Source of the DNA: an uncultured Chloroflexia bacterium
GTDB taxonomy: Bacteria > Chloroflexota > Limnocylindria > Limnocylindrales > CSP1-4
Direction of reading: 5' to 3'
Assembly: GCA_963767945.1 (NCBI GenBank)
Contig: CAVYGH010000011.1
Span: 23,679 to 87,678, forward strand
Length of the DNA stretch: 64,000 nt
Made by a program: the position numbers and the translations under genes. Position 1 is the stretch's first letter. Each line of letters starts with the position of its first letter. The notes beneath the pieces were generated by a model, which did not search any database, was not told the DNA's origin, and saw only the letters and a list, made by a program, of their open reading frames with translations. Below are positions 2,451-18,225 of this stretch, in pieces.

Positions 2451-3733
2451 AGATCGGGCTGGTCTCCCCGTACGTCTACCCGCTCCCGGGCGGCGTCACC
2501 CAGCACGTCCGGTACCTGTACGAGAACCTGCGCCAGCGCGGCCACGACGTGCGGATCCTGACCTCGTCCCACGGCCTGCAGCGGGCGTCTGAGGGCGACG
2601 TGATCCGCCTCGGCAAGGGCTTCTCGATGCCCGCCAACGGCTCGGTGGGGACGGTCACGCTCTCGTTCCGCTACATCTCCCAGGTGCGCGAGGTCCTCGA
2701 GCGGGAGCGGTTCGACGTCCTCCACTTCCACGAGCCGTTCGTCCCGTTCCTCTCGCTCGTGATCCTGCGGGAGTCGCAGAGCGTCAACATCGCGACGTTC
2801 CACGCCTACGGTGGCTGGTCGCCGGCCTACGAGTTCGGCAGCCGGGTCATGGGCGCCTACGCCGAGCGGCTGCACGGCCGGATCGCGGTGTCAGCCGCCG
2901 CCCGGCACTTCATCGACCGCTACTTCCCGGGCGACTACAAGGTGATCCCGAACGGTGTCGACGTGGAGCGCTTCCGGCGCGCCGTGCCGATCGCCCGCTG
3001 GCAGGACGGGACGGCCAACATCCTGTTCGTCGGCCGGTTCGAGCCGCGCAAGGGCGTCCTCGACCTCCTCCAGGCCTACCGGATCCTGCGCAAGACCGGG
3101 TGCAACTGCCGGCTGCTGCTGGTCGGCGGCGGGCCCCAGGAGCGCGAGGCGCGGCGGTACATCGCGACCCGCCGGCTCCACGGCGTGGAGTTCCTCGGCC
3201 GCGTCTCGGACGACGAGAAGGCGCAGCTGTTCCGCACGGCCGACGTGTACGTCTCGCCGGCCACGGGCCGGGAGTCGTTCGGCATCGTGCTCCTCGAGGC
3301 GATGGCGGCCGGGGCGCCGATCGTCGCCTCCGACATCCACGGCTACAAGGGGGTGGTGCGGCGGGACCGCGAGGCGCTGCTGGTGCCGCCGCGCCAGCCG
3401 AAGGCGATCGCGGCCTCGATCGCGCGCCTGCTCAGCGATCCGGCGACGGCGTCGACGATGTCGACCGCGGGAGCGGTGCGCGCCGAGGAGTTCAGCTGGC
3501 CGCGGGTGACCGCCAAGGTCGAGGACTACTACGGCTTCGCGATCCGGCGCCTCGCGGCCACCGGCCCGCTGCCCGCGCACTTCACGGCGACCATCCCGCC
3601 CTCGCCGCGGACCCCGGCGGGGAACCCGTCGCGCGACGGCTACCCGGCGGGGGCGCCCTCGGAGCCGCCCGCGTCGCCGGTGGCGGCCTCGTCGCCCTCC
3701 GCCGCGGCCATCCGCCAGACCCAGGTCGAGTAG
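2447..3733 (+). CDS. GT4 (GT-B) glycosyltransferase, PimA-like mannosyltransferase family
   Basis: GTG 2447 overlaps the PHP stop (GTGA). It has the 'KIGLVSPYVYPLPGGVTQHV' N-terminus, 'FVGRFEPRKG' and the E-x7-E region 'GRESFGIVLLEAMAAGAPIV'. It ends in a roughly 45-aa Pro/Ala/Ser tail. Confidence 0.8.
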   Translation: MKIGLVSPYVYPLPGGVTQHVRYLYENLRQRGHDVRILTSSHGLQRASEGDVIRLGKGFSMPANGSVGTVTLSFRYISQVREVLERERFDVLHFHEPFVPFLSLVILRESQSVNIATFHAYGGWSPAYEFGSRVMGAYAERLHGRIAVSAAARHFIDRYFPGDYKVIPNGVDVERFRRAVPIARWQDGTANILFVGRFEPRKGVLDLLQAYRILRKTGCNCRLLLVGGGPQEREARRYIATRRLHGVEFLGRVSDDEKAQLFRTADVYVSPATGRESFGIVLLEAMAAGAPIVASDIHGYKGVVRRDREALLVPPRQPKAIAASIARLLSDPATASTMSTAGAVRAEEFSWPRVTAKVEDYYGFAIRRLAATGPLPAHFTATIPPSPRTPAGNPSRDGYPAGAPSEPPASPVAASSPSAAAIRQTQVE

Positions 3734-6700
3734 GCGACCACCGCGCAGGCGATCGCGAGGAACACGAGCAGCAGCGCGAACTTGGCGTCGGCGAACGAGA
3801 TCGCACCGCTCCGGTCGAGGGTGTTCACCGAGAACTGGAACGCGTACAGGTAGGTCGGCAGGATGCCCTGGTACGCGTTGACGAGCGTCGAGGGCAGCGG
3901 CAGCGCCGCGATGTTCGGATACAGGATCACGAACCAGACGCCGGCGGCCAGCACGAAGCCGACCACGAACCGGCGCGAGTCGCGGGCGGTGATGACCTGC
4001 AGGCCGACCAGCGCCAGCGGGATCGCGACCAGCAGCGCGATGAGCTCGGGCACGACCCCGTTGATCGAGAACAGCACGGCGTCCGCCGGCAGCGCGCGCG
4101 TCAGCGCGATCACGAGCCCGCCCACGAGCGCCGTCACGGCCAGGGGCAGCAGGTCCCGCGGCCCGATCGATCCGCCGCCCTCGCGCGGCCGCGTCAGGTC
4201 GAACAGCAGCTTCACGAGGACGATCAGGGTCACCAGCCCGACCACGGCGAGCGCCGCCGCGGACGGCGTCACGACCAGGTTGCCGGGGTTCCCGTTGCAC
4301 GCCTGCGACCCGGCGTTGACGGACTCGACGTTCGCGATCCCGCACAGCGGCTGGCGCAGCATCCACAGGATGACCGGCGCGAACAGCGCGGCCACGGCCG
4401 CGACCCGCGCGACCAGCCACGTCCGGCGCGACGGCCCGTGCCACAGCTCGGCGACGAAGTACGCGAGCGCGAGGAACAGGAACGGCAGGCTCGTGTAGTA
4501 GTGGTACTGGAACGCGGCCCGGTCGATCCGCGCCCACGAGATCCACTGGCACAGGAACCCGATCAGGATCATCGCGAGCGGCAGGCTGCGGCGCTTGAAC
4601 CCCTGGTACGCCACGAACACCATGGCCGGGATGCCGACCCACCACAGGATCACGTTGCCGGCGTCGTAGATCGACGCGGCGGTCGAGTTCGCGAAGCTGC
4701 CCTGGTAGAACCAGACCGGCTTGAGGTTGAGCGGCCACGCCCACCAGGGCGAGCTGGCCGGGTGCGGCGCGGTCAGGTTGTTGTGGTAGCGGTACATCTC
4801 GCCGGTGAGGTCGAGCAGCGTCTGTCCGGTGTGCCCGGGCGGCCAGCCGGCGACGATCTGGTGACCCTCGATGAACGCCCACGGGAGGTACGTGATCACG
4901 TACACGACCAGCGGCACGGCGAGCAGCGAGCCGACCATCCACACGATGGGCAGGCCCAGCCCAGAGCCGAGCCGCAGCCACCCGGTCGGCGGCGGCGACG
5001 CCGGCGGCAGCAGCCGGCGCGGGTCGTCGGGTCCAGGGGCCTTGGCCATCGGACCGAATCCGTACCGGGCGGCGACCTGGAACGCGACGTACATGAGGAT
5101 GCCCACGAGGACGAGCGCGAACCCGACCTCGAGCGGCGTCACCTTGACCGGTCCCGCCGTGAACCCCGTGCCCGCCTTGCCCACGAGGATCGAGCCGAGC
5201 GCGATCAGGATGCCCAGGCCCGCCGGTCCGGCGACGGCCAGCCACATCTCCTCGTCGGACCAGGCGATCGGGTGGTACACGGTCACGACGACCGCCGCCA
5301 TGGTCAGCGCGATCATGATCAGGATGAACGGGAGGTTGCCCGACGCCCCGCTCCCCGGCGGCACGGCCAGGCCCATCCAGCCGAGGACGCCGGTCAGCCC
5401 GATCATCCCGACGATCAGGAGGAGCCGGCCCAGCGCCGACCGGGCGAGGATCAGGATGCCCAGCGCGCCGATCGCGTAGGCCGCCACCCACTTCGAGGCC
5501 AGGGCGAGCCCGAGGAACAGGCCGATCATCGGCATCAGCGTCCAGAACGCCCAGCGTGGCCGCTCGGGCTTGATCCACAGCCAGGCGAACACGCAGTACG
5601 CGGCCAGGATGAAGGCGCCCACGTAGACGTCGTTCATCGCGATGCGGCTCTGGACGAAGAACATGCCGTCGAGCAGCGCGAACACCCCGACCAGGATCGC
5701 GATCGAGCGTCGCCGGAACAGGATCCGCGCCAGCAGGAACAGCAGGGCGACGGTGATCGCGCCCATCGCCACGCCGGGCAGCCGCCACGCGAACGCGTAG
5801 TCGCCGACGTCGAGCGAGGCGGTCGCTCCGTCGGCCGCGAAGGCCAGGATCTGGCCCCGGTTGGCGGTCGGGTAGTCGGGGTTGTGGTCGAGGACCCACG
5901 CGGTCGGCGCGAACGGGACCCGCTGGTCGGCGAACACGCTCGGGCTGTGCGGCTCGACCACGTACACGGTCGAGCCGGCACCGTCCGGGGTCGTGCCCAT
6001 GACCTCGACCATCTCGGCCGCCGGATCGAACAGCACCCGCGTGCCGGCGCCCGGGAGGGTGAGGGTCCTGATGACGGCGGGGCCCTCGTCGGCGTCATCC
6101 CCGGTGACCGCGACGACCTTCAGCTGCGGCTCGTCCGTGGCCGGGTCCCGGGTCGTGACGTAGAGCTGCGTGCCGTCCTCGATGCTGCTGACGAGGGCCA
6201 GGCCCTGCGCCCCGCCGTCGAGCTCGACCGTCGCCGCGACGCCGGCGGTGCCGGTGAGCAGCGTCAGGCCATCGGAGCCGGCGACGCCCAGCCGCGGCAC
6301 GCCCTCGATCGTGATCCCGGTCAGGCGCCCGTCGTCGATCGCCGACTGGAGGGCCGCCCGCGTGTCGCCCGTCGGGACCGGGGCGACGACCACCGAGTCC
6401 TGCTCGACGTCCGCGAGGCCGACCTCGTAGTCCGCGGCGTCGCCGCCGATGATCGCCGCGAGCTCGCTCGCCGCGGCCGCAGCGTCGTCGATGTCGGCCG
6501 GCGTCGCGACGATCGCGTCTCCGCTGCCCGCCGCCGCCATGTCGACCGCGCCGGCGACGACCGTGCGACCCGTCTCGCCACCCGTGTCCGGGTCCACGAC
6601 CACCACGGTGTCCCCGGGGAGGATGGCGGCGACGTGCGACCCGTCCTCGAACGTCGCCAGGCGGGTGATCGGGCCGTCGAGCGTGGCGACCAGCTCGGGC

Positions 6701-8961
6701 TGCACGACCTGCTCGAGCCCGCCGGGGTCGAGCCCGTCGAGCGTGGCCACGTCGAGGGCCAGCAGCTCGCCCGACTCCGTCCCCACGTACAGCCGATCGC
6801 GGTCGGCGTCGTAGGTGATCGCGCTGGCGCCCGGCACGCTCCACGACGCGATCTCCTTGCGCGTCTGCAGGTCGTACCCGGACAGCGCGGAGCCGGTGAC
6901 CACCCACACGCGGTCGCCGTTGCGGGCGCTGGACGAGACGGAGTCCGGTCGCCGCGGCTCGATGGCCGCGTCGCGCACCGGGACGCCGAGCTCGCTGGTG
7001 GCCTCCGTGTCGTGCCCGGCGAACAGGACGATGCCGCCCGCCATCGCGTACTTCGCGAGATGCGGGTGCGTCCACTCGTAGATGTAGTGCGAGAGGCCGT
7101 AGCGCCAGTCCTGCAGGAACTCGGCCGCCGTGCGCGCGTGGTAGACCTCGTCGAAGTGCATCCGGGCGGGCTCGGCCAGCCGGAACATGCGCAGGCCCAT
7201 CGCGGCGACGACGAGCACGATCAGGATCCACAGGTCCAGCCGGTCGAACCGCCCGCGGCCCTCCGTCGCGAGCAGGCGGGACCGGTCGGGGCGGATGGGC
7301 GTCTCGTCGATCTTCCCCTTGAGCCAGGCGATCGGCCCCACCTCCGACCACGCCGGGCGGTCGAACCACGCCGGGACCAGGCGCCGTGCCGGGGCGACGG
7401 CCGCCGCGGTGCCGGCCGGGAGGCCGCTCACGCCGGGCGTCATGGGCACGCCGGGCGCGCCCACCGCCCCGGGCGGTGCCGTGGCCTCGGCAGGCGCGTG
7501 CAGCTCTCGTCCCTCCTCGAGCTCCGCGGCCAGGGAGCGGCGGGCGGCCGGCCGCAGCTGGGCGAACGCCCACAGGAAGACGCCGGTGTTGAGCAGCGCG
7601 ACGAGGGTCACGCCGGCCTGGGACCGGATCCCCTCGCCGATCCCCAGCCAGTCGCGGATGCTCGGGTTGTCCGGGTAGAGCGCGGTGAGGACGACGTACA
7701 TGTTCAGGAACGTCGCCACGGACGCCACGATGTAGGCGATCCGCCAGCGCCACGAGAACGCGAACGGGATGGCCGCCAGCGCGAACAGCGGGAACAGGTA
7801 GCGCTCGTGGACCCGTGTCGGGACGGCGAAGAAGGCGAGCGCGAGGACCGAGACGCCCACGAGGATCGTGAGCCGGTCGGGCCGGCGGGCGACGAGGAAG
7901 GGCACGATCACGAACAGCAGCAGCCCGAGGGCCACGCCGCCGACCGCGGCGGCGGGAAACGGCCCGATCGACGCCCAGCTGGTCGCGTCGGCGACGGGCG
8001 CGTCGAAGATCCAGGCCCCGTTGGTGGCCATGCTCTGGCCGTCGACCGGGAACAGCGCCCACAGGTTGTACGCGTTGACGGTCACGTACGAGTAGGTCGA
8101 GGCCGTGCTCAGGATGAGCCGCACGAGCGACGAGTCGACGAACGGCGCCGTGCCGGAGAACGAGACCACGGAGATCCCGAACGGCGCCGAGAGGACGACC
8201 GCCGTGGCGAAGCCGGCGATGCCCGTGGACACGATCCGGATCCAGCCGGTGGTCCGCCGCTCCCAGCCGAACCCGGACGGCTCGGGCGGGGCCTCGTCGC
8301 CGAAGCCGCCCTGCGGCCAGAGGGCGCGCCGGATCGTGACGAAGGCCACGATCGGGACGAGGATCGCGAGCTGCGGCTTGACCAGGGCGGCGACCACGGC
8401 GAGGATCGCCGCCCGTTCGGAGCGCGCCTTCCACAGCTCCCGGACCGACAGCAGCAGGAACACCGTGCCGAAGCTGTCGACCTGGCCCCAGACCACCGAG
8501 TCGAACCAGGTGATCGGGTTCACGATCACCACGGCCCCGGCGAGCGTCGCGCGTCGCTCGCTGACGCCGAGGTCGCGGGCCATCCGGTAGACGATGTAGC
8601 CGAGCGCGACGTCCGTGAGGATCGCCGGCAGCTTGATCAGGTCGCCGATGCCGCCCAGGAACTGGCCGACGACGCCCACGACCCACAGCGCATAGAGGTA
8701 GCCGGGCGTGTAGTCGGCGAAGAAGCCGCGATCGTAGAAGCCGAACGGACCCTGCTCGGCGAGGCTGGCCGCCCAGTACCGGAACAGGCCGAGGTCGGAC
8801 TCGAACCCGGAGCCGCGGAGCCCTTCGTACCCATATGCCATGATCAGCCGGAGCACCAGGCCGATCGCCACGATCGCCAGGATCTGCCAGCCGATACCTC
8901 GCCGGGGGGTCTCGTCCGTCATCGTTTCCCGGCCGGGCGCGCCCGAACCCAGACCGGACAC
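3640..8961 (-). CDS. Giant (1773 aa) membrane protein: N-terminal GT-C mannosyltransferase-like module fused to a GT39/PMT-type module carrying a ~400-aa propeller-like insert
   Basis: AGGAGG lies 6 nt upstream of GTG 8961. The N-terminal module is multi-TM with 'FFADYTPGYLY' and 'WGQVDS'. The PMT motifs are 'MHFDEVYHARTA' (aa 601), 'THPHLAKY', 'FFVQSRIAMNDVY' and a C-terminal 'PWWAWPLNLKPVWFY...AAFQYHYY'. The single uninterrupted ORF shows strong GC3 bias. Confidence 0.85.
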   Translation of the reverse strand: MSGLGSGAPGRETMTDETPRRGIGWQILAIVAIGLVLRLIMAYGYEGLRGSGFESDLGLFRYWAASLAEQGPFGFYDRGFFADYTPGYLYALWVVGVVGQFLGGIGDLIKLPAILTDVALGYIVYRMARDLGVSERRATLAGAVVIVNPITWFDSVVWGQVDSFGTVFLLLSVRELWKARSERAAILAVVAALVKPQLAILVPIVAFVTIRRALWPQGGFGDEAPPEPSGFGWERRTTGWIRIVSTGIAGFATAVVLSAPFGISVVSFSGTAPFVDSSLVRLILSTASTYSYVTVNAYNLWALFPVDGQSMATNGAWIFDAPVADATSWASIGPFPAAAVGGVALGLLLFVIVPFLVARRPDRLTILVGVSVLALAFFAVPTRVHERYLFPLFALAAIPFAFSWRWRIAYIVASVATFLNMYVVLTALYPDNPSIRDWLGIGEGIRSQAGVTLVALLNTGVFLWAFAQLRPAARRSLAAELEEGRELHAPAEATAPPGAVGAPGVPMTPGVSGLPAGTAAAVAPARRLVPAWFDRPAWSEVGPIAWLKGKIDETPIRPDRSRLLATEGRGRFDRLDLWILIVLVVAAMGLRMFRLAEPARMHFDEVYHARTAAEFLQDWRYGLSHYIYEWTHPHLAKYAMAGGIVLFAGHDTEATSELGVPVRDAAIEPRRPDSVSSSARNGDRVWVVTGSALSGYDLQTRKEIASWSVPGASAITYDADRDRLYVGTESGELLALDVATLDGLDPGGLEQVVQPELVATLDGPITRLATFEDGSHVAAILPGDTVVVVDPDTGGETGRTVVAGAVDMAAAGSGDAIVATPADIDDAAAAASELAAIIGGDAADYEVGLADVEQDSVVVAPVPTGDTRAALQSAIDDGRLTGITIEGVPRLGVAGSDGLTLLTGTAGVAATVELDGGAQGLALVSSIEDGTQLYVTTRDPATDEPQLKVVAVTGDDADEGPAVIRTLTLPGAGTRVLFDPAAEMVEVMGTTPDGAGSTVYVVEPHSPSVFADQRVPFAPTAWVLDHNPDYPTANRGQILAFAADGATASLDVGDYAFAWRLPGVAMGAITVALLFLLARILFRRRSIAILVGVFALLDGMFFVQSRIAMNDVYVGAFILAAYCVFAWLWIKPERPRWAFWTLMPMIGLFLGLALASKWVAAYAIGALGILILARSALGRLLLIVGMIGLTGVLGWMGLAVPPGSGASGNLPFILIMIALTMAAVVVTVYHPIAWSDEEMWLAVAGPAGLGILIALGSILVGKAGTGFTAGPVKVTPLEVGFALVLVGILMYVAFQVAARYGFGPMAKAPGPDDPRRLLPPASPPPTGWLRLGSGLGLPIVWMVGSLLAVPLVVYVITYLPWAFIEGHQIVAGWPPGHTGQTLLDLTGEMYRYHNNLTAPHPASSPWWAWPLNLKPVWFYQGSFANSTAASIYDAGNVILWWVGIPAMVFVAYQGFKRRSLPLAMILIGFLCQWISWARIDRAAFQYHYYTSLPFLFLALAYFVAELWHGPSRRTWLVARVAAVAALFAPVILWMLRQPLCGIANVESVNAGSQACNGNPGNLVVTPSAAALAVVGLVTLIVLVKLLFDLTRPREGGGSIGPRDLLPLAVTALVGGLVIALTRALPADAVLFSINGVVPELIALLVAIPLALVGLQVITARDSRRFVVGFVLAAGVWFVILYPNIAALPLPSTLVNAYQGILPTYLYAFQFSVNTLDRSGAISFADAKFALLLVFLAIACAVVAYSTWVWRMAAAEGDEAATGDAGGSEGAPAG

Positions 8962-8981
8962 GGGGAGCCTCCTACGCAGCG

Positions 8982-10469
8982 GTGAAGGTGGACCGGAGTA
9001 TAGCCGAGGGCCCCGACGGCCCCCTCTCGCCCGGGTCCGAAGTCGGCCGCCCCGCGGCGGTCATCGTCGGGCTCTTGCTGGCGTTGGGCGCGCTCGCGCT
9101 CTACACGTGGTCCAACCCCGAGCACTACAACCAGTACAACCATTTCGTCTGGCAGGCGGACGCCTTCCTCCACGGAAAGGTTTCGTTCGACTGGCCGGTG
9201 CCCGACTTCTCCGACCGGCCCGCCAACTGGTACTTCAACGACATCTACCCACTGTTCGACGCCAGCGGGCAGCCAACGGGTCAGGTCCTGCTCCCGTTTC
9301 CGCCCCTGCCCGCGCTGGTCCTGCTGCCGTTCGTGGCTGCCGTCGGGCTGACCGTGGATCAGGAGGCGATCGCGGCCGCCCTGGCGGCCATTGGCGTCGG
9401 CATCGCGTACTGGATGCTCGGCGGCCTGCGGATCCGGCTGGCCGTCCGGGCGTTGACGACGATCCTGTTCGCGACCGGGACGGTCTGGTGGTGGGCGGCG
9501 GCGGTCGGCAGCACGTGGTACCTCGCCCACCTCGTCGCCGTGATCGCGGCCCTGCTGGCCGTCGGCGTGGCGCTCCGCCACGACCCGCGCGCCGGCGCCG
9601 ACGACGTGCGGGACGACGGGGCGGACGGCGCGGCCGCAGCGAACGGCGACGACGAGGACGGCGGGTGGCGGTCGGCGGTCTGGCCGCTCGACGGCTCGCA
9701 GGTCCTGGCCGGGCTCCTGCTCGGCATCGCGGCGACGGCGCGCCTGCCGCTCGTGTTCGCCGCGCCGTTCTTCATCCTCGTGGGCGGCGGCGGGACCCGC
9801 GCGCGCCGCCTCGTGTCGGCGGGGATCGGCGGCGTCGTCCCGGTGGCGGCCCTCCTCCTCTACACGCAGCTCACCACCGGCGCCTGGCTGCATCCGGGCT
9901 ACGACTACCAGTACCAGCTGGAGGCGAACGGCTACCCGACGCTCGGCTACCACCCCGAGTGGTCGGTCGAGGACCTCCGCTACATCCCGCAGAACCTCGG
10001 CATCATGTTCGGCGCGCTGCCCGTCATCGCGCCCGACGTGAAGCCCAACACCCTCGGCTTCGGCGACACCGTCGTCCTGTGCACGGCGCCCGGGGCCCAG
10101 CGGTCGCTGCTCGATCCCGACTGCCCCCTGGTCATGCCGATCGACATCGGGACGAGCATCCTGCTGAGCGCGCCCGGCCTCCTGATCGCGCTGTTCGCCA
10201 TCCGCCGGCACCCGCTCGCCCGCCTCACCGTCGGGGTGGGCGTGACCGTGGTGGTGATCGCGCTGTTCAACCTGGCGCACTTCAGCCAGGGCTGGGTCCA
10301 GTGGGGCTATCGCTTCTCGCTCGACTTCATCCCGTTCCTGCTGCCCCTCGTCGCGCTCGGCGCCGGGCACGCCGACGGCCGGCCGCGGGGGGTGGCGATC
10401 GCGCTCGTGATCGCCGGTGCGGCGATCAACCTGTGGGGCGTGGTCTGGGGCCAGCTCCTTGGCTGGTAG
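8982..10469 (+). CDS. Integral membrane GT-C fold glycosyltransferase (ArnT/PMT_2-like)
   Basis: ORF track 495 aa, divergent from the giant gene. It has about 10 or more hydrophobic spans and a first-loop 'WQADAFLHGK...FNDIYPL'. The start is 8982 or 8988 (both GTG). Confidence 0.6.
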   Translation: MKVDRSIAEGPDGPLSPGSEVGRPAAVIVGLLLALGALALYTWSNPEHYNQYNHFVWQADAFLHGKVSFDWPVPDFSDRPANWYFNDIYPLFDASGQPTGQVLLPFPPLPALVLLPFVAAVGLTVDQEAIAAALAAIGVGIAYWMLGGLRIRLAVRALTTILFATGTVWWWAAAVGSTWYLAHLVAVIAALLAVGVALRHDPRAGADDVRDDGADGAAAANGDDEDGGWRSAVWPLDGSQVLAGLLLGIAATARLPLVFAAPFFILVGGGGTRARRLVSAGIGGVVPVAALLLYTQLTTGAWLHPGYDYQYQLEANGYPTLGYHPEWSVEDLRYIPQNLGIMFGALPVIAPDVKPNTLGFGDTVVLCTAPGAQRSLLDPDCPLVMPIDIGTSILLSAPGLLIALFAIRRHPLARLTVGVGVTVVVIALFNLAHFSQGWVQWGYRFSLDFIPFLLPLVALGAGHADGRPRGVAIALVIAGAAINLWGVVWGQLLGW

Positions 10470-12066
10470 CCGCAACGGGCGGCTCGGCCGCATCGACCCC
10501 GCCTACCCGGCGGGCCTCCTGACCGGCATCGGGGCGTTGGTCGTGTACCGGTCCACGCTGCTGCCGGGCCTGGGCGCCTGGGACACGGGCGAGGCCCAGA
10601 CGGTGCTGCCGATCCTCGGCACGATGCACCCGACCGGCTTCCCGGCCTACGCGCTGCTGGGCTGGGTCGCATCGGTGGTGCTCGGGCCGTTCGGGTCGCC
10701 GGCGTTCGCGATGAACCTGCTGTCGGCCGTGCTGGTGGCCACGGCGGTCGGGATGGCCGTCGTGGTCGTCCGTCGCCTGGACGTGCCGCTGCCGATCGCC
10801 GTCGCCGCCGCGATCGGGTTCGCGCTCACGCCCCTGGTCTGGCGGGTCGGCGTCGCCGCGGATGCCCACGCGCTCCACGCGGTGCTGCTGGTGGCGATCG
10901 TCGGCCTCCTCGTCCGTTGGGAGCGGTTCGTCGGCGACCGGAACGCCGAGCCGGACGATCCGCGCCTGCGCGCCCGTGCGGATCGCGCGATCGTCCTCGC
11001 CGCGGGTGCCTTCGGCGTCGGGCTCGCGAACCACGCCCTGATGCTGCTGCTCATCCCGGCCGTGGGACTGTTCGTGCTGGCCGTCGAGCCGGGCGTGCTG
11101 CGGCGGCCGCGGCTGATCCTCGCCGCGCTCGGGGCCTGCTTCGGGGTGGCCGCGCTGCTCTACCTCGAGCTGCCGCTGCGCGCGGGCCCGTTCCGGGCAC
11201 CGCTCGTCTACGGCCATCCCGAGACATGGACCGGCTTCTGGGACGTCGTGCTCGCCCGCCAGTTCCAGGGGGACATCACGCGCCCGCTGGGCGACATCGC
11301 CGGCAAGCTCGACGACCTGCTGTCGCTGGGTCTCCGGCAGTTCGGCCCGTGGCTGATCCTCGTCCCGTCGGGGCTGCTGATCGCGGCGGTCCGGCTGCCG
11401 CGCTACGCGCTCCTGTCGGGCGTCGCCACGCTGACGACGTGCGTCTTCGCGGCGTCCTACGAGAACGCCGCCATCGAGCGCTACTACATCGGCCCCGTGT
11501 TCTTCGCCTGGACGTGGCTCGCGATCCTTGGCGGCGCGGTCGCGGAGGCGATCGCCGCGCGATTCGGACCGGTCCGGAGCCCCGAGGACGCGCCGCTGGC
11601 CGCAGCGTCCACCCGGTCGTGGCGACCCGTCGGGGTGCTGGCCGCGGTCGTCGCGCTCGTCGTCGGCGTCGCGCTGGTGGTCCCGACCGCGACGCAGATC
11701 CAGTCGCGCTGGCGCATCGCCGACCAGAACCGTCCGACCTGGGTCCACGCCTGGCTGGACGAGATGTTCACGGCGCTCGAGCCCGATGCCGTCGTGCTGT
11801 CGTGGTGGTCGTACTCGACCCCGCTGTGGTACGGCCAGCTCGTGGAGCACCGCCGGCCCGACGTGTGGGTCGTGGACGACCGGACGCGGCTCGACGAAGA
11901 TCTGGGCGACGTCACCGACGTCATCGAGGCTAACCTCGACACGCGACCCGTCTACCTCATCCGCCAGCCGGCCGAGATCGAGGCCCTCTCCCAGCGTTAC
12001 CTGATCGAGCGGGTCGGAACCCCGGGCAACCTGTTCCGGGTCGTCGGCCGCATGGAGACCACATGA
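10417..12066 (+). CDS. DUF2723 (TMEM260-like) GT-C family membrane glycosyltransferase
   Basis: 'YRSTLLPGLGAWDTGEAQTVLPILGTMHPTGFPAYALLGW' is the hallmark DUF2723 N-terminus. The protein is multi-TM with a soluble C-terminal domain. The start is uncertain: GTG 10417 or TTG 10459, both overlapping the upstream gene. Confidence 0.75.
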   Translation: MRRSTCGAWSGASSLAGSRNGRLGRIDPAYPAGLLTGIGALVVYRSTLLPGLGAWDTGEAQTVLPILGTMHPTGFPAYALLGWVASVVLGPFGSPAFAMNLLSAVLVATAVGMAVVVVRRLDVPLPIAVAAAIGFALTPLVWRVGVAADAHALHAVLLVAIVGLLVRWERFVGDRNAEPDDPRLRARADRAIVLAAGAFGVGLANHALMLLLIPAVGLFVLAVEPGVLRRPRLILAALGACFGVAALLYLELPLRAGPFRAPLVYGHPETWTGFWDVVLARQFQGDITRPLGDIAGKLDDLLSLGLRQFGPWLILVPSGLLIAAVRLPRYALLSGVATLTTCVFAASYENAAIERYYIGPVFFAWTWLAILGGAVAEAIAARFGPVRSPEDAPLAAASTRSWRPVGVLAAVVALVVGVALVVPTATQIQSRWRIADQNRPTWVHAWLDEMFTALEPDAVVLSWWSYSTPLWYGQLVEHRRPDVWVVDDRTRLDEDLGDVTDVIEANLDTRPVYLIRQPAEIEALSQRYLIERVGTPGNLFRVVGRMETT

Positions 12067-12860
12067 CCGCTGCCCCCGCGCCGGCCGACACGGGCGTCCG
12101 CGCCGCCGACCTCGTGCCGCGGCTCTCGTACTTCTTCCCCGCCCACAACGAGGAGGCGAACCTCGAGGGGCTGGTCGAGGAGGCGCTCGAGACCCTGCCG
12201 CAGATCGCCGAGCGGTTCGAGATCATCGCCGTCGACGACGGGTCGACCGACCGGACGGCCGAGATCGCCGACCGGCTCGCGGCGGCCCACCCGGACGTCG
12301 TGCGGGTCGTCCATCACGCGGTCAACCGCGGCTACGGCGGCGCCCTCCGCTCGGGGTTCGAGGCCTCCCGCTACGAGCTGCTGGCGTTCACCGACGGCGA
12401 CCGCCAGTTCCGGGTCGCCGACATCGGCCGGCTGACCGAGCGCCTCAGCCGGCCCGACCATCCGGACGCCGCGGTCGGGTTCCGGATCAAGCGCGCCGAT
12501 CCGGTCATCCGCGTCGTCTACGCGCGGACGTACAAGCTCGCCAACCGCATCTTCTTCGGGCTCAAGGTCAAGGACGTCGACTGCGCCTGCAAGCTGTTCC
12601 GACGGGAGGCCCTCGAGGGCGTCCGGGTCGAGTCGGGCGGCGCGTTCTTCTCGGCCGAGCTCCTGATCAAGGTCGAGGCCGCCGGCCGGCACGTGGTCCA
12701 GGTCGGCGTCCCGCACTACCCGCGGACGGCGGGCTCGCCCACGGGCGCCAAGCCGTCGGTCATCTGGCGCGCCGTCAAGGACTTCTGGAGCCTGCGCCTG
12801 CGGATGTGGGCGAACCGCGAGCGGGCGGGCCGACGCGGCCGCCCGATCCTGGGCGCCTGA
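12063..12860 (+). CDS. GT2 polyprenol-phosphate hexose synthase (Ppm1/DPM1/ALG5-like)
   Basis: ATG overlaps the upstream stop (ATGA). Motifs: 'SYFFPAHNEE', 'IIAVDDGSTDRT', 'FTDGDRQF' and 'CACKLFRREAL', as in GT2 dolichyl/polyprenyl-phosphate sugar transferases. Confidence 0.8.
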   Translation: MTAAPAPADTGVRAADLVPRLSYFFPAHNEEANLEGLVEEALETLPQIAERFEIIAVDDGSTDRTAEIADRLAAAHPDVVRVVHHAVNRGYGGALRSGFEASRYELLAFTDGDRQFRVADIGRLTERLSRPDHPDAAVGFRIKRADPVIRVVYARTYKLANRIFFGLKVKDVDCACKLFRREALEGVRVESGGAFFSAELLIKVEAAGRHVVQVGVPHYPRTAGSPTGAKPSVIWRAVKDFWSLRLRMWANRERAGRRGRPILGA

Positions 12861-12894
12861 GCGCCGGTCGCCCACACCGGCCCGGCGGCCGGTC

Positions 12895-13500
12895 CTAGCT
12901 CGAGGACGAGCCGCCGCCCCGCTGCTCGCTGTCCGGGTCGAGCGAGTTGACGAACTCGCGGAAGATCGCGAGGCGCGTCTGGTCCAGCACCTCGCCCGTG
13001 GTCTCCGGAACGAGCGGCTTGCGGCGCCGCCCGGCCGTCGCGCCCGCCTCCTCGCCCTCGTCCTCCTCCTCGTCGTCGTCGTCCGGGACCGTGGCCGCGC
13101 GATCGAGCACCTCCGACGACGCGAACACGGGGACGCCGAGCCGGACCGCGAGGGCGATCGCGTCCGACGGGCGGGCGTCGATCTCGTGGCGGTCGTCGCC
13201 GCGGCTGAGCTCCAGGCGGGCGTGGTAGGTCTCGTCGGCGAGGTCGGTGATCACGATCCGCTCGACCGTCACCCCGAGGGTCGTGAGCACGGTGGCGAAC
13301 AGGTCGTGGGTCAGCGGTCGCTCGGGCGTCAGGCCCTGGAGCTTCATCGCGATCGCGCTGGCCTCCCACGGGCCCACCCAGACCATCAGCAGGCGGGTCG
13401 CGTCGACCTCGCGCAGGACCAGGACGTGGCGGCCGGTCGGCATGTGGACGCGGACGCTCTCGACGATCATCTCGATCTCGGAGCCGCGCTCGCCGTCCAT
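12895..13500 (-). CDS. Bifunctional nuclease family protein (BFN/DUF151) with acidic C-terminal tail
   Basis: 'VLVLREVDATRLLMVWVGPWEASAIAMKLQG...RPLTHDL' and 'DARPSDAIALAVRLGVPVF' match the BFN domain. It is followed by a 'DDDDEEEDEGEE' tract. Confidence 0.8.
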   Translation of the reverse strand: MDGERGSEIEMIVESVRVHMPTGRHVLVLREVDATRLLMVWVGPWEASAIAMKLQGLTPERPLTHDLFATVLTTLGVTVERIVITDLADETYHARLELSRGDDRHEIDARPSDAIALAVRLGVPVFASSEVLDRAATVPDDDDEEEDEGEEAGATAGRRRKPLVPETTGEVLDQTRLAIFREFVNSLDPDSEQRGGGSSSS

Positions 13501-13536
13501 GGACCGATTATCCCACGCGGTCGCCGGGGCGGCCCG

Positions 13537-14241
13537 TCAGGCCGCGAGCGCGGGCGCCGGCTGGTGCCGGATCCGGAACGGCAGCGCGAGCAGCACGCCG
13601 GCGAGGAACCCGGTCACGTGCGCGAAGAAGGCGACCCCGGTGTCGCCGGTCGCGCCGATCCAGCCGATCGCGTCGAGCAGGTTCAGCGCGAACCAGAACC
13701 CGAGCACCAGCACGGCCGGCACGGCGATCAGCTGGTAGAACAGGCCGAGGTAGACGAGCGACTGGATCCGCGCGCCCGGGAACAGCACGAGATAGGCGCC
13801 CAGCACCGCCGAGATCGCGCCCGACGCGCCGATCATCACGGCGTCCGAGGCCGGATCGACGGCGACCTGGCCCGCCACCGCCGCCACGCCGCCGACGACG
13901 TAGAACGCCAGGAAGGTCGGCCGGCCCATCCAGTCCTCGACCTTGTTGCCGAAGATCCACAGGTAGAGCATGTTCCCGAGCAGGTGGAACCAGTCCGCGT
14001 GCAGGAACAGGCTGGTCGCGATCGCCAGCACCGGCAGGGACAGCCAGTCGCCCGATCGGACCGATGCCGTCAGCTCCGACGGCACCGCGCCGTGGACGGT
14101 CAGGAACTCACCGAGGCCCGGGTCCCCGCTGCGCGCCAGCACCGCGAGCTCCCACGCGAAGGCCGCGCAGCAGACCGCGATCAGGGCCAGCGTGACCACC
14201 GGCGTCCGCCGAGTCGGGTTGGCGTCCCGGAGCGGGATCAC
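13537..14241 (-). CDS. Rhomboid family intramembrane serine protease
   Basis: 'HADWFHLLGNMLYLWIFG' and the catalytic 'GASGAISAVLGAY' motif are present. The start is moved to GTG 14241, 16 nt after the upstream stop. The ORF-track extension to 14589 overlaps the upstream gene and looks non-coding. Confidence 0.8.
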   Translation of the reverse strand: MIPLRDANPTRRTPVVTLALIAVCCAAFAWELAVLARSGDPGLGEFLTVHGAVPSELTASVRSGDWLSLPVLAIATSLFLHADWFHLLGNMLYLWIFGNKVEDWMGRPTFLAFYVVGGVAAVAGQVAVDPASDAVMIGASGAISAVLGAYLVLFPGARIQSLVYLGLFYQLIAVPAVLVLGFWFALNLLDAIGWIGATGDTGVAFFAHVTGFLAGVLLALPFRIRHQPAPALAA

Positions 14242-14257
14242 GGCCGACCGCTTCTCG

Positions 14258-16537
14258 TCAGCGCCGAGGCCGCTTCGTGGGCTTGGGGGTCTTCGCCGGC
14301 GCCGCCTTCGTGGGGCTGGGCGCTGGCGAGGCCGACGGCGACTCCTCGGGGGCCTCCTCGAGCAGCGCGCTGTTGAGGCCGTTGCTCGAGATCCACCACA
14401 TCGTGGACGGGGCGTCGGCATCGGCGACCGGCAGCACGTCGAGGCCCTGGAGGTCCGACCAAGCCTCGTCGCCCCCGGCGAGCTGGTACTGGCCGATGTA
14501 CTCGCCGTCCGACTTGTTGAAGGCCACCACCCGGTCGTTGGCGGCGTCGAACGCGTACAGCGCCCCGATGCGCTTGCTCGGGTTGCCATCCGCCAGGATC
14601 GGCGACGACAGCATCGTGTAGTCGCTGGTCGGCCGGAGCTGGGTGTCGTCCGGCAGGTCCGGTGCCCAGTTCGTGGCCGGGATCACGCGCTCGACCTCGC
14701 CGTTCTCGGCGGCAAAGATGTCGCCGTCGATCATGAGGTCGGTGATGCCGTCGACGGGGCGGTCCGTGGGCAGACGCCCAGTCCCGGCACTGTGGTAACC
14801 AGACCCATCACTGGATGGGTCGTAGACCATGATGTTCTGTTCCGACGGGTCCACCACGTACAGCTTGTAGAACGCGGCGTCGAAGTTGGCCACGAATGTC
14901 GCGAGCTCCTTGACGTCGTTCCCCCACGAGGCCGAGTTCTTGACCGGGATCCGCGCGAGCGTCCCGCGACCCGAGTTGCCGGCCGGACGCCAGCGCCAGA
15001 GCGTGTTCTTGCTGTCGAGGATCAGCACGTCCGGGCCGCCAACGGTGATCAGCTTGGGATCGGCGACGCGGGTGCCTGACGCCCGCTGTCCGGCCTTGAG
15101 GACGGGCGTCGCCGACTTCTTGGCCAGGTCGATCCGCCACACGGTCTTGCCGGCCGTGTCCAGCACGTACGGCGCGCCGTCGGCCCCGCGGACGAGACCG
15201 GCGAGCTGCACGGTCTTGTCCTTGGGGAACCGGTACAGCGGTGAGGACTTGACGTTGGTCATGCGATACAGGCGGTCGAGCCCCGCGAGCGCCGTCTTCC
15301 GCAGCGGCTCGATCTGCTCGAGCGGGTAGCCCGCCTCCTCGGCGGCGTCGAGCTGCTGGTACGCCGAGTTCAGCAGCTCCAGCGCCTGTCGCGGGTCATC
15401 GGTGATCAGGTCGACTCCGGGGCCGCTGACGCTGTCCAGGGCCTCCTGGGCGGCCTCGAAGGCGCTCTTGGCCGCCGTCAGCGACGGGATGGCGTCCAAG
15501 GGCTGGCGCTGCCCGCCGACGGCGTAGACGCCGAATACGAGCGCGCCGGCGACGGCCACGAAGGCAAGCAGGGCCACCGCGGCCCGCCGCTGCATCTCCA
15601 TGCGCGACGCCGTGCCGGTGACCTTCTTGCTGGGCTTCGACTTGCGCCGTGGCAGCATGTCCTGGATCCGCCAGATCGCCCGCTCGAACCCGTTGCCTGC
15701 GGCGCTCTTGGCCTTGGTCGCCCCGGCGCCGATGGCGGCCGCGCTCGCCGTGACGGTGTCGGCGAGCGGGATCGGCGACTTGTCCGGAGCGCCGGCGAGC
15801 GGCTCGGCGGGGCGCACCGGGACCAGGGTCTTGGCCTTGTGCGTCGCGCCGACCTCGTTGGCCTCGAACGCGATGGCGCCGTCGCTGCCCTTGCCGTCGG
15901 CCGCGACGAACCGGGCGTGGAGGTGCTCGATCGCCGACTGGGGATGGAGCGTGACGAGCGCGTCCTTGAGGGCGTCGGTGCCGATCTTGGCCACGATGTT
16001 CGCGGACACGAGGCACAGCGAGTCGCCGACCGAGAGCTCGCCGCGCCAGACCTCGGGCTCGAGGTTCTCGACCGGCAGGCCCCGATCCCGGTTCGGATCG
16101 GGCAGGGTGGACAGGCGGGCCTGGCGGATGAGGTAGGCCTCGGCCGGTCCGACCGTCGCCACGTACAGCTCGCGGCCGCGGACCACGGCCACCGCCACGC
16201 CGATCGGGCCGCCGTCGTCGCCCAGGTGGCTCATCCCGTAGCGGTCGCGCTGGTGGGCGAGGCGCTTGTTGGCGACGCCCATGACCTTGGTCAGGCACTG
16301 CCGGATCCCGGCCGACTCGTCGTAGTAGTACTCGTTGCGGATCGTGTCCGCGATCATCCGCGTCGCTTCGCGCGCCCGGTTGCCGGTGGTGCGCGACGTG
16401 ACCAGCAGGTACAGGTTGCCCTTCGACCGTGCGACGGAGCCGACGGACGGCTCGACGACCACGATGGCGTCGGGCGAGTCGGCGAGCTGGTCCTGCTCGG
16501 TGACGGCACCGAGCTTCAGCTGGAGGCGGACGGCCAA
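14258..16537 (-). CDS. Membrane protein: N-terminal PP2C-like domain with degenerate catalytic motifs, one TM segment, C-terminal beta-propeller-like ectodomain
   Basis: ORF track 759 aa. The PP2C-like spacing is kept ('LYLLVTSRTTGN', 'ELYVATVGPAEAYL', 'LCLVSANIV'). The TM segment is 'AAVALLAFVAVAGALVFGVYAV'. The C-terminus has repeated strand-rich blades. Confidence 0.6.
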   Translation of the reverse strand: MAVRLQLKLGAVTEQDQLADSPDAIVVVEPSVGSVARSKGNLYLLVTSRTTGNRAREATRMIADTIRNEYYYDESAGIRQCLTKVMGVANKRLAHQRDRYGMSHLGDDGGPIGVAVAVVRGRELYVATVGPAEAYLIRQARLSTLPDPNRDRGLPVENLEPEVWRGELSVGDSLCLVSANIVAKIGTDALKDALVTLHPQSAIEHLHARFVAADGKGSDGAIAFEANEVGATHKAKTLVPVRPAEPLAGAPDKSPIPLADTVTASAAAIGAGATKAKSAAGNGFERAIWRIQDMLPRRKSKPSKKVTGTASRMEMQRRAAVALLAFVAVAGALVFGVYAVGGQRQPLDAIPSLTAAKSAFEAAQEALDSVSGPGVDLITDDPRQALELLNSAYQQLDAAEEAGYPLEQIEPLRKTALAGLDRLYRMTNVKSSPLYRFPKDKTVQLAGLVRGADGAPYVLDTAGKTVWRIDLAKKSATPVLKAGQRASGTRVADPKLITVGGPDVLILDSKNTLWRWRPAGNSGRGTLARIPVKNSASWGNDVKELATFVANFDAAFYKLYVVDPSEQNIMVYDPSSDGSGYHSAGTGRLPTDRPVDGITDLMIDGDIFAAENGEVERVIPATNWAPDLPDDTQLRPTSDYTMLSSPILADGNPSKRIGALYAFDAANDRVVAFNKSDGEYIGQYQLAGGDEAWSDLQGLDVLPVADADAPSTMWWISSNGLNSALLEEAPEESPSASPAPSPTKAAPAKTPKPTKRPRR

Positions 16538-16583
16538 GCAACGAGCCTCATGGTGGGAGCGACGCGCGTCGGTATGCGGCGGT

Positions 16584-16603
16584 GACGGGACTCAAATCCC
16601 GTC
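16584..16603 (-). terminator. Hairpin downstream of the recF-DUF721 operon (no U-tract)
   Basis: GACGGGA-CTCAAA-TCCCGTC is a perfect 7-bp stem. It lies 23 nt past the DUF721 stop. Confidence 0.3.
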
Positions 16604-16625
16604 GGCCCGTCGGCGGGAGCCGCGA

Positions 16626-18145: not shown

Positions 18146-18225
18146 CGGGGCGGCGCGGCCGCTCCCCGCGTCGTCCGGGAACAGGTTGGGCGGCGCGTCC
18201 GTCGGAGCGGCCCCCAGGACGTCCG

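Follow-up and report, generated by a model that had tools for sequence, protein, structure and literature searches.

We found a single gene that joins an ALG6/PimE-type GT-C glycosyltransferase module to a GT39/PMT module via a cytoplasmic linker, and in which a β-propeller of ~400 residues has been acquired in external loop 1 of the PMT module, the loop of the DE motif. It lies in the window, i.e., the whole stretch of 64,000 nucleotides that was analysed. The gene product is probably a holoenzyme for protein O-glycosylation (most likely O-mannosylation) that sits in the cytoplasmic membrane as a single chain. We propose this by analogy, because of the related fused and separate states found in other bacteria and of the mycobacterial Pmt complex described in a preprint (bioRxiv 10.64898/2026.07.15.738315).

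The gene occupies 3640..8961 on the minus strand (the strand of all coordinates below unless stated otherwise) and is a single uninterrupted ORF of 1773 aa plus stop, with about 32 predicted TM helices. Its GTG start at 8961 is preceded by a Shine-Dalgarno sequence, AGGAGG (8968..8973), 6 nt upstream, in agreement with the single ORF and strong RBS reported in the first-pass annotation. The orthologue alignments begin at residue 1. A long ORF on the plus strand (3100..8985) drew no support from the searches: all Pfam and homologue matches were those of the minus-strand ORF, the frame that was queried. The sequence strings quoted in the first-pass annotation were all recovered in place: DYTPGYLY (aa 83-90) and GQVDS (aa 159-163) in the N-terminal module, MHFDEVYHARTA (aa 601-612) in the PMT module, HPHLAKYAMAGGIVLFAG (aa 632-649) in its external loop 1, LYVGTESGELLALD (aa 724-737), QLYVTTRD (aa 932-939) and TVYVVEP (aa 998-1004) in the insert, and WRLPGVAMGAITVALLF (aa 1059-1075) in the region of PMT TM2. 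The ORF is real and the earlier domain map was essentially right, but its topology was wrong.

The homologue search returned at least 120 full-length orthologues of the fusion, and 580 relatives were found in species-representative genomes, closed chromosomes among them. The fusion was intact in at least 108 of the 121 related loci analysed. These came from independent studies and different sequencing technologies, and include the closed chromosomes OY969796 and OY970218. There is thus next to no chance that an assembly chimera or a gene-calling artefact fused two genes. The two halves were in different frames at seven of the 121 loci (e.g., L081, where they overlap by 11 nt), as such an artefact would have it, but the split cases were mostly long-read MAGs with multiple frameshifts. 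Furthermore, dN/dS was below 0.5 in every segment (0.05-0.47), and the linker itself is under purifying selection.

The linker (aa 471-575, 7237..7551) precedes TM1 of the PMT module and consists of an amphipathic helix, a variable Pro/Ala-rich stretch (aa ~485-530), which is the Pro/Ala-rich linker noted earlier, and a conserved Arg-rich segment (aa ~528-575). The C-terminal module (aa 576-1773) is a GT39/PMT enzyme with a DE motif. Profile and PMT alignments, together with the AF2 model, assign 7012..7236 to TM1 (aa 576-592) and the first part of external loop 1. In this loop the DE motif, D604-E605, opens a helix (aa 604-621) and is followed by a short helix (aa 635-647, HPHLAKY...). The Pfam PMT profile matched aa 1056-1173 over its positions 82-198 only (52 bits, cut-off 22.7). 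Its first ~50 positions matched weakly at aa 582-640, a stretch that aligns with FDEVH...HPPLGK of fungal Pmt4 before the alignment picks up again ~400 residues further on. The PMT module is thus indeed split, by ~400 residues.

The resumed PMT core was delimited by Pfam PMT and the alignments (TM2-TM7, aa 1053-1200, 5362..5805). Its TM2 spans aa 1055-1082, and its external loop 2 carries R1106...D1111, which, judging from motif position, may be the equivalent of D176 of MtPMT. Four additional TM helices predicted by AF2 and hydropathy (aa ~1201-1360, 4882..5361) separate this core from the large external loop and lie outside both Pfam matches of the module. The large external loop and PMT_4TMC region (aa 1361-1545, 4327..4881) was identified by Pfam (PMT_4TMC at aa 1382-1540, 50 bits, cut-off 32.4) and by orthologue conservation, and bears the invariant motifs H..SSPWWAWP and R1481..F-x-Y-H-Y-Y. 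Across 60 orthologues, D604-E605, R1106/D1111 and R1481/Y-H-Y-Y were invariant. The PMT_4TMC region had been taken for the end of the protein, but ~230 residues follow it (aa 1546-1773, 3643..4326). According to orthologue conservation, AF2 and hydropathy, this extension comprises an external loop whose Cys pair C1540/C1555 is invariant, five more TM helices, and another external loop that is conserved (YPN..YQG.LPTY.Y.FQF, aa 1681-1710). Against the NCBIfam equivalog model for Pmt the protein scored only 25 bits (cut-off 800); it is therefore not an orthologue of the characterised actinobacterial Pmt.

The insert (aa 651-1052, 5806..7011) is β-rich and was modelled with high confidence by AF2 as a propeller of about seven blades, which bears out the propeller-like character first attributed to it. 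Almost all of its top 50 Foldseek matches (TMt up to 0.74) were propellers of the WD40/BamB type or chains that contain a propeller, and it has a weak Pfam PQQ_2 match. The region is gap-free in 117 orthologues, with a dN/dS of 0.32-0.41. AF2 and profile comparison reveal within it an α/β subdomain (aa ~813-885, 6307..6525), which is missing in a second clade of Limnocylindria and, at the profile level, weakly resembles the N-terminal domain of a class B PBP-like protein (4ovd).

The first-pass annotation took HPHLAKY... as TM2, and accordingly placed the propeller in a cytoplasmic TM2-TM3 loop, working on the cytoplasmic side. This is very improbable. The stretch HPHLAKYAMAGGIVLFAG is hydrophobic, as that topology would have it, but only moderately so (mean hydropathy 1.57 over 13 residues). 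With its 13 residues (aa 635-647), the helix is too short to cross the membrane, and its hydropathy stayed below the threshold for a TM segment in the scan. In PMT structures and models, its counterpart is the helix in the external loop that comes after the DE motif. The insert-bearing loop is the one between TM1 and TM2, where the DE motif lies; all PMTs have this loop on the luminal or periplasmic side, and hence the unusual topology proposed earlier falls away. The distribution of charges fits only with the propeller outside: the helix that follows it ends in RRRS, and inside loops have 30 Lys/Arg in 145 residues versus 13 in 270 for outside loops (21-22% versus 5%, both modules alike). Since the propeller shares external loop 1 with the catalytic DE motif, it lies outside the cell membrane.

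The N-terminal module (aa 1-470, 7552..8961) was delimited using AF2, Foldseek, orthologue HMMs and motif conservation. Its 12 predicted TM helices leave both termini inside, and its model has a pLDDT of 86. The top 35 Foldseek matches in the PDB were all GT-C-fold proteins, the best being ALG6 (TM 0.61/0.66), with GPI-MT-I, PIG-U, PimE and ALG3 also among the best. The window's own module was below detection with Pfam, including GT87 and Alg6_Alg8, and had no PDB match at the sequence level, but GT87 was matched by eight of 15 orthologous modules (best 7.5e-8) and Alg6_Alg8 by 11 of 19 (best 6e-7), in agreement with the fold. The N-terminal half is thus a GT-C by fold, and the chain does contain two GT-C modules, as had been suggested.

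The invariant motifs of the N-terminal module are D56 (at the start of the first loop helix), D83-Y-T-P-G-Y, K110, D117, W158-G-Q-x-D162, K195-P-Q, N296-A-x-N, H385-E-R-Y and N420. The polar loop residues among them (D56, D83, K110, D117, Q160, D162, K195, Q197, N296, N299, H385-E-R-Y and N420) are kept across Chloroflexota, Firmicutes, Binatia and an Actinomycetota MAG at 25-40% identity. PimE (GT87, 9DM5) and ALG6 (GT57, 6SNH), both among the best structural matches, are GT-C enzymes dependent on polyprenyl- or dolichyl-phosphate sugars; in both, the first loop helix carries an Asp at its tip, and Lys/His lie at the phosphate. Unlike them, the window's module is fused to a PMT. The catalytic residues of PimE are D58, Y62, K195 and H322. 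Motif position and secondary structure, rather than residue superposition, suggest that D56/K195/H385 may correspond to PimE D58/K195/H322. The module would thus keep an Asp/Lys/His-Glu-Arg-Tyr set of the kind that PimE uses for catalysis and phosphate binding.

The closest known system is the mycobacterial Pmt complex, composed of Pmt (Rv1002c/ML0192c, GT39), Rv0051/ML2687c (GT87-like), Rv3212/ML0810c (a periplasmic β-propeller) and Rv1209/ML1065 (bioRxiv 10.64898/2026.07.15.738315). Pmt pulls down the GT87-like protein and the propeller, which was modelled above the Pmt active site (bioRxiv 10.64898/2026.07.15.738315). The likeness is in the kinds of parts: both have a GT39 enzyme, another GT-C of GT87 type and, outside the cytoplasm, a propeller associated with the loop-1 active site. 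In the window, however, all three are in one polypeptide with the propeller inside PMT external loop 1; this propeller has about seven blades instead of eight, and the PMT module has about nine extra TM helices. It is plausible, given the separate mycobacterial propeller subunit, that the propeller acts as a substrate recruiter or gate-keeper. For the GT87-like partner, ML2687c/Rv0051, the preprint reports an absence of catalytic residues and a role like that of a non-catalytic Pmt2 (bioRxiv 10.64898/2026.07.15.738315), whereas the window's module keeps putative catalytic motifs. The N-terminal module might nonetheless be a non-catalytic scaffold or acceptor recruiter, like Pmt2 or Rv0051, leaving one active site instead of two, and its lack of detection by Pfam GT87 and Alg6_Alg8 points the same way. 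We regard this as rather unlikely given the invariance of the polar loop set over such divergent phyla, a motif layout that matches the base, the phosphate-binding Lys and the His of PimE, and a dN/dS (0.15-0.19) as low as that of the PMT core.

Translational GT87-GT39 fusions were already noted in Paenibacillus (UniProt V9WAU2; bioRxiv 10.64898/2026.07.15.738315). We found related fusions in Firmicutes (Paenibacillus, Lachnospiraceae and other Bacillota; L178, L182, L183, L199, L200) and Binatia (L180, L187), with an ALG6/PimE-like GT-C, a linker and a PMT in the same order and the same N-module motifs. At ~1030-1280 aa, versus 1773 aa in the window, they are too short for the extra TM blocks. 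Those of Firmicutes have 3-4 residues between the loop-1 and TM2 matches and therefore no propeller; in those of Binatia, judging from the lengths, the chain beyond the loop-1 match probably leaves too little room for one. Conversely, fusion and propeller occurred together in all Limnocylindria sampled, and the propellers of the two clades are homologous (hhalign 99.1%). The insert is thus universal in the Limnocylindria sampled but absent from these other fusions, and the view of bacterial Pmt as single-module proteins holds for the classical actinobacterial Pmt but not for the GT87-like-GT39 fusions found here and in the literature. In an Actinomycetota MAG the two GT-C genes are separate but adjacent. 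The N-module motifs are common to all these phyla, fused or separate. Adjacency in one MAG and fusion in several phyla suggest that the two GT-Cs are functionally coupled.

Eukaryotic Pmt1-Pmt2 and Pmt4 dimers (6P25, 9I5K) also pair GT-C units, share the GT39 fold with the DE motif in the luminal TM1-TM2 loop, and have a β-rich luminal domain over the active site. Their cap, however, is a MIR β-trefoil between TM7 and TM8 instead of a loop-1 propeller, their partner is another GT39 instead of a GT87/ALG6-like module, and their units are separate chains of 11 TM helices each. TMTC1-4 and TMEM260 are likewise GT-C O-mannosyltransferases with an extra luminal protein-binding repeat domain, in their case a C-terminal TPR array.

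The most conserved neighbour of the fusion is a GT2 gene (12063..12860, plus strand), found in 47 of 49 loci, in 45 loci of the second-clade set and in both Binatia loci. It is probably the polyprenyl-phosphate-hexose synthase by which the donor is supplied. Polyprenyl-phosphate sugar synthases (such as PpgS, ArnC, PgfS and AglJ) make up most of its best NCBIfam relatives, the single top match being PgaC/IcaA. A TMEM260-like gene was also observed among the neighbours. A convergent operon next to the gene contains genes for a PIM-acyltransferase-like protein (NF005919, E 3e-28), for a PHP protein and for a GT4, to which L081 adds a second acyltransferase, an inositol-1-phosphate synthase and a CDP-alcohol phosphatidyltransferase; the gene set resembles mycobacterial pgsA1-patA-pimA. 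These PIM-type lipid genes would also be compatible with a glycolipid as acceptor. In that case the neighbouring cytoplasmic enzymes would make a glycolipid based on phosphatidylinositol for one or both modules to extend, and the product would be a glycan anchored to lipid, either a glycolipid of the PIM or lipomannan kind or a wall polymer, as the PimE-like fold of the N-terminal module might also suggest. We consider such a product unlikely, more so than a non-catalytic N-terminal module. The conserved neighbour across clades is the GT2 rather than the PIM genes, and the PMT peptide-site motifs of external loops 4 and 5 are invariant. Firmicutes have the same N-module-PMT fusion, the window's GT4 neighbour was absent from the Firmicutes loci fetched, and we know of no PI-mannosides in this phylum. 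To our knowledge, GT39 enzymes have been characterised only as protein O-mannosyltransferases.

For the protein O-glycosyltransferase, we propose that the adjacent GT2 would put a hexose on polyprenyl phosphate at the cytoplasmic face. After flipping, the PMT module, using D604 as the base, would attach this sugar to Ser/Thr residues in exported proteins. The propeller would cover or gate the acceptor site and choose substrates, as the counterpart of the MIR domain of eukaryotic PMTs and of Rv3212/ML0810c. The N-terminal module would be the counterpart of Rv0051/ML2687c, but with its motifs kept it would probably add a further sugar to the O-linked glycan; PimE is able to extend O-mannose in M. 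tuberculosis. One polypeptide would then both initiate and extend the O-glycan, possibly as a processive enzyme with two active sites. The system itself is known; what is new is that parts that are separate in the mycobacterial Pmt complex are joined in one chain, in a three-part protein of a soil Chloroflexota bacterium.

The fused protein is encoded on the minus strand by an open reading frame (3640..8961) that runs for 1773 residues without an internal stop and is preceded by an AGGAGG 6 nt upstream of its GTG start. The first-pass annotation had described it as a single uninterrupted frame with a ribosome binding site, and we found the same; every string it quoted was located where it had placed it. 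The window has a G+C content of ~73% and long frames on both strands. One of these, an antisense frame of 1961 aa (3100-8985, plus strand), overlies the fusion gene and is probably a by-product of the scarcity of stop codons at this composition. The minus-strand frame is the one we queried and the source of all domain and homologue matches.

The fusion is widespread. A protein search retrieved at least 120 orthologues of full length, with 1750-1870 aa and identities of 52-92%, and the named ones among the matches listed were all from Chloroflexota or Candidatus Limnocylindrales MAGs. Species-representative genomes contained 580 relatives, of which the best 80 were all full length and included those of the closed chromosomes OY969796 and OY970218. 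Of 121 loci whose frames were analysed, 108 were fused, seven "split" and six truncated by contig ends. The insert was kept in 117 orthologues with only about 1% of gaps. The dN/dS values computed between the window gene and four close relatives were low: 0.15-0.19 in the N-terminal module (N-module, aa 1-470), 0.05 in the first transmembrane (TM) helix and loop 1 of the PMT module (aa 576-1773), 0.11-0.28 in the rest of that module, 0.32-0.41 in the insert (aa 651-1052) and 0.36-0.47 in the linker between modules (aa 471-575). The number of orthologues, the fused frames, the nearly ungapped insert and the low dN/dS rule out that the fusion is an assembly chimera and that the insert is decaying. 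The observation made by the first-pass annotation is confirmed, and its interpretation was right as to the identity of the domains.

Stand-alone PMT-plus-propeller proteins were considered as a common split form and rejected, as the frame analysis of the 121 loci resolved most of these proteins into fragments or frameshifted fused genes. The apparently split loci came mostly from long-read MAGs with breaks at several places. In one apparently split locus, L081, a 228-kb metagenome contig, the N-module (5903-8011) and the PMT-propeller part (8001-12320) were called as two genes with an 11-nt overlap, which could be a frameshift (real or due to sequencing) or a genuine split; the six further loci that look split mostly have several frame breaks. 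A 1061-aa PMT (P0212) with a loop-1 insert of ~386 residues and without the N-module is encoded at 7762-10947 of L124, a 20-kb contig that otherwise carries mostly small frames without Pfam match, plus MazG and DUF2254 genes, i.e., phage- or island-like surroundings. Near-full-length copies were also found in MAGs labelled outside Chloroflexota (L044, L052, L055, L133, L146, L153, L159, L173 and L174; labels Verrucomicrobiia, Methylomirabilota, Patescibacteria, Zixiibacteriota, Pleomorphomonadaceae, Steroidobacteraceae, Binatia and Alphaproteobacteria). They lie mostly on short contigs, with the exception of L174 (178 kb), and probably reflect binning contamination rather than transfer.

The N-module of the window protein had no match in Pfam, NCBIfam, phmmer searches against PDB or profile searches against PDB. 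Its identity rests on a fold search and on scans of its orthologues, not on sequence matches of the window copy itself. An AlphaFold2 model built with 60 orthologues as input (pLDDT 86, pTM 0.87) gave 35 best Foldseek matches in PDB that were all GT-C-fold proteins, headed by yeast ALG6 (E 5e-6, TM 0.61/0.66) and followed by GPI mannosyltransferase I, PIG-U, PimE and ALG3. Orthologous N-modules scanned singly matched Pfam GT87 (PF09594; 8/15 and 4/19, best 7.5e-8), Alg6_Alg8 (PF03155; 7/15 and 11/19, best 6e-7) and PIG-U (1/15 and 5/19). The orthologue E-values reached 1e-7 to 1e-8 with no one of the three families favoured. The fold and orthologue matches together bear out the proposal that the N-terminal half is a GT-C module, and its modelled structure is a GT-C transmembrane fold of the ALG6/PimE type, a class named GT-C_A in the PimE paper. 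Its positive-inside count was 21 K/R in 94 inside-loop residues versus nine in 174 outside.

Many N-module residues are invariant in orthologues down to 36% identity: D56, D83-Y-x-P-G-Y, K110, D117, W158-G-Q-x-D162, K195-P-Q, N296-A-x-N, H385-E-R-Y and N420. Homologues of Firmicutes, of Binatia and of one Actinomycetota MAG also keep the motif set. According to the PimE paper, the base of that enzyme, D58, sits at the tip of the first juxtamembrane helix, positioned by Y62, and the donor phosphate is bound by K195 and H322. The N-module has the same layout, with D56 at the start of its first loop helix (54-70) and F/Y at +4, K195 and H385, the putative equivalence being one of position, not of superposition.

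The PMT module was identified by two Pfam matches: PMT (PF02366) at aa 1056-1173, covering profile positions 82-198 only (52.1 bits, cut-off 22.7), and PMT_4TMC (PF16192) at aa 1382-1540 (50.3 bits, cut-off 32.4). The absent start of the PMT profile weakly matches aa 582-640. In phmmer searches against PDB, aa ~584-650 align with the "FDEVH...HPPLGK" stretch of fungal Pmt4 and the alignment picks up at aa ~1058, while the Pmt4 chain advances just ~19 residues. Hence, the module is genuinely broken by about 400 residues, as the first-pass annotation had proposed. The score against NF058602, the NCBIfam equivalog of the characterised actinobacterial Pmt, was 25.2 bits, below the cut-off of 800. 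The Foldseek matches of the whole PMT-module model were dominated by propellers, and the GT39 identity of its TM part rests on the HMM matches. Among the conserved positions, D604-E605 is invariant in 60 orthologues, aligns with the FDEVH of fungal Pmt4 and lies in the external TM1-TM2 loop; the remaining motifs of the PMT catalytic and acceptor sites, R1106...D1111 (loop 2), H..SSPWWAWP (large loop) and R1481..FxYHYY (loop 5), are all invariant. The predicted activity would be the transfer of mannose from polyprenyl-P-Man to protein Ser/Thr, a prediction supported by a neighbouring GT2 gene that is a candidate donor synthase.

Canonical PMT have 11 TM helices and a short loop 1, whereas about 20 TM helices are predicted in this module and its loop 1, with the propeller, runs to 460 residues; the total predicted for the whole protein is ~32. 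The additions to the canonical arrangement are four TM helices at aa ~1201-1360 and a C-terminal extension past PMT_4TMC (aa 1546-1773; 3643-4326, minus strand) of 230 residues with five TM helices. In the extension region, an external loop contains an invariant pair of cysteines (C1540/C1555), and a strongly conserved external motif, YPN..LP..YQG.LPTY.Y.FQF, is modelled with low confidence; this may be an extra functional site.

The model of aa 575-1773 (pLDDT 81) places the insert between two TM helices. TM1 (aa 576-592) is followed by a helix starting at the DE motif (aa 604-621) and by a 13-residue helix, LAKYAMAGGIVLF (aa 635-647); then come at least 28 beta-strands with one alpha/beta excursion (aa 652-1051), and a TM helix of 28 residues (aa 1055-1082), after which comes RRRS. 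Nearly all of the 50 best Foldseek matches were beta-propellers or propeller-containing chains (WD40, G-beta, BamB, designed "Cake"; TMt ≤ 0.74), and the Pfam match of the insert, to PQQ_2/BamB, was weak. The modelled strand count fits about seven blades. The strand-rich, blade-like region is thus a beta-propeller, and this part of the first-pass interpretation held. Its topology did not: the propeller had been placed in a cytoplasm-facing TM2-TM3 loop, but the "TM2" is the 13-residue loop helix, the loop is the one between TM1 and TM2, and the propeller is extracytoplasmic. The positive-inside count of the PMT module under the model-derived topology (30 K/R in 145 inside-loop residues versus 13 in 270 outside) agrees with this orientation. 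In PMTs, the loop with the DE motif lies on the luminal or periplasmic side. The model, the known side of this loop and the count together put the propeller outside, spliced into the active-site loop of the PMT. The sequence of the alpha/beta excursion (aa ~813-885; 6307-6525, minus strand) weakly but reproducibly resembles the N-terminal region of class B PBP-like proteins (4ovd_A profile, E 2e-5; SpoVD, E 0.23).

Relatives in other lineages differ in the presence of the insert. A second Limnocylindria clade has fusions of ~1560 aa with a 350-residue loop-1 insert that is homologous to the window propeller (hhalign 99.1%, E 1e-18) and lacks the alpha/beta excursion. Fusions of N-module and PMT in Firmicutes (Paenibacillus aestuarii, Paenibacillus sp. 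SYP-B3998, Lachnospiraceae, Acetatifactor and other Bacillota) are ~1030-1120 aa long; in these, no more than 3-4 residues separate the loop-1 helix from TM2, so that they have no propeller. Those of Binatia (~1210-1280 aa) are, judging from their lengths, probably too short past the loop-1 match to hold one. In an Actinomycetota MAG, a 564-aa N-module homologue lies directly upstream of a separate 516-aa PMT gene. This series of adjacent, fused, and fused-with-propeller states argues for joint action of the two GT-Cs and for the propeller having been acquired in Limnocylindria.

A pull-down-confirmed complex around the mycobacterial Pmt was described in a July 2026 preprint (bioRxiv 10.64898/2026.07.15.738315). 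It includes Rv0051/ML2687c, a GT87-like partner without catalytic residues, Rv3212/ML0810c, an eight-bladed periplasmic beta-propeller modelled right above the Pmt active site and compared to the MIR domain, and Rv1209/ML1065, a small bridging protein; the preprint also noted Paenibacillus GT39 enzymes joined to a GT87 enzyme. The window protein shares three part types with this complex in one chain, a likeness at the level of part type. The covalent linker may make a bridging subunit of the Rv1209 type (DivIVA family) unnecessary. The pairing of GT39 with a GT87-like GT-C occurs in one chain here, as adjacent genes, and as fusions in other phyla. Our literature searches gave no description of this fusion protein, nor of the loop-1 propeller, the retained partner motifs, the extra TM blocks or the Limnocylindria distribution.

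The best-supported mechanism, which we regard as reasonably probable, is a single-chain protein O-glycosyl(mannosyl)transferase holoenzyme in which the external propeller would cap the PMT module and the N-module would be a probably active extender. One main alternative is that the N-module is a non-catalytic partner like the mycobacterial subunit; unlike that subunit, it keeps invariant acidic and basic loop motifs. PimE is able to extend O-mannose in M. tuberculosis. More tentatively, and with doubt prevailing, both GT-C modules might be active and cooperate under the propeller on one acceptor, initiating and extending O-glycans on exported proteins.

The other main alternative, that the acceptor is a glycolipid, was prompted by the genes around the fusion, whose order is kept in ~45 of 49 loci. 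On the plus strand, the C-terminal part of a PIM-acyltransferase-like gene (25-603; NF005919, E 3e-28), a PHP/PHP_C gene (~1620-2450) and a GT4 gene (~2460-3733) converge on it. In L081 this convergent operon (12330-18257) extends to a second Lip_A acyltransferase, an inositol-1-phosphate synthase and a CDP-alcohol phosphatidyltransferase. Its resemblance to the early phosphatidylinositol-mannoside pathway suggests that Limnocylindria may make PI-based glycolipids. Yet the fusion is also found in Firmicutes, and we therefore gave less weight to a glycolipid acceptor than to a protein one.

On the diverging side are a TMEM260-like GT-C (10417-12066, plus strand; Pfam E 3e-20) and a 495-aa membrane protein (8982-10469, plus strand) present in 41 of the 49 loci, for which family searches gave no match. 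The latter may be another GT-C: hhalign weakly aligned it with the TMEM260-like protein, with a probability of 35% over 182 columns. This was the one hint from comparisons in which the 495-aa protein and the C-terminal extension were set against the GT-C modules, and in which even the control pair, TMEM260-like and PMT, scored near zero. The GT2 gene (12063-12860, plus strand) is likely the donor synthase, since most of its best NCBIfam relatives are synthases of polyprenyl-phosphate sugars (the top match is PgaC/IcaA) and since it persists beside the fusions of the second clade set (45 loci) and of Binatia. Further along, a 759-aa frame (14258-16537, minus strand) occurs in all 49 related loci, and the second clade also keeps it; Pfam gave no match, and the one to anti-sigma factors was marginal (E 0.002). 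The window also encodes a tmRNA (49509-49881, minus strand; Rfam 130 bits) with the ARAGORN tag peptide ANKQPALALAA.

The fusion provides "Rosetta stone" support from comparative genomics for the recent, largely AlphaFold-based claim that bacterial Pmt acts with a GT87-like GT-C and an external beta-propeller, and its value lies in this evolutionary support for a newly proposed complex and in its use as a structural target. The complete, conserved active-site-like motifs of the partner outside mycobacteria reopen the question of pseudo-enzyme versus extender. One chain of 1,773 residues with a fixed 1:1:1 stoichiometry makes an attractive cryo-EM target, which could reveal a capping domain feeding unfolded acceptors to the PMT active site. 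If both GT-C modules do cooperate on one acceptor, the series of adjacent genes, fusions and fusions with propeller, set beside the multi-subunit mycobacterial complex, would make PMT, GT87-like partner and capping beta-domain the ancestral working unit of protein O-mannosylation across Terrabacteria, of which Limnocylindria would hold the sole single-chain form. Limnocylindria are an abundant lineage of soil and freshwater, still mostly uncultured. The conservation of the fusion gene in hundreds of their genomes suggests that glycosylation of proteins or of the envelope is a core trait of this lineage.
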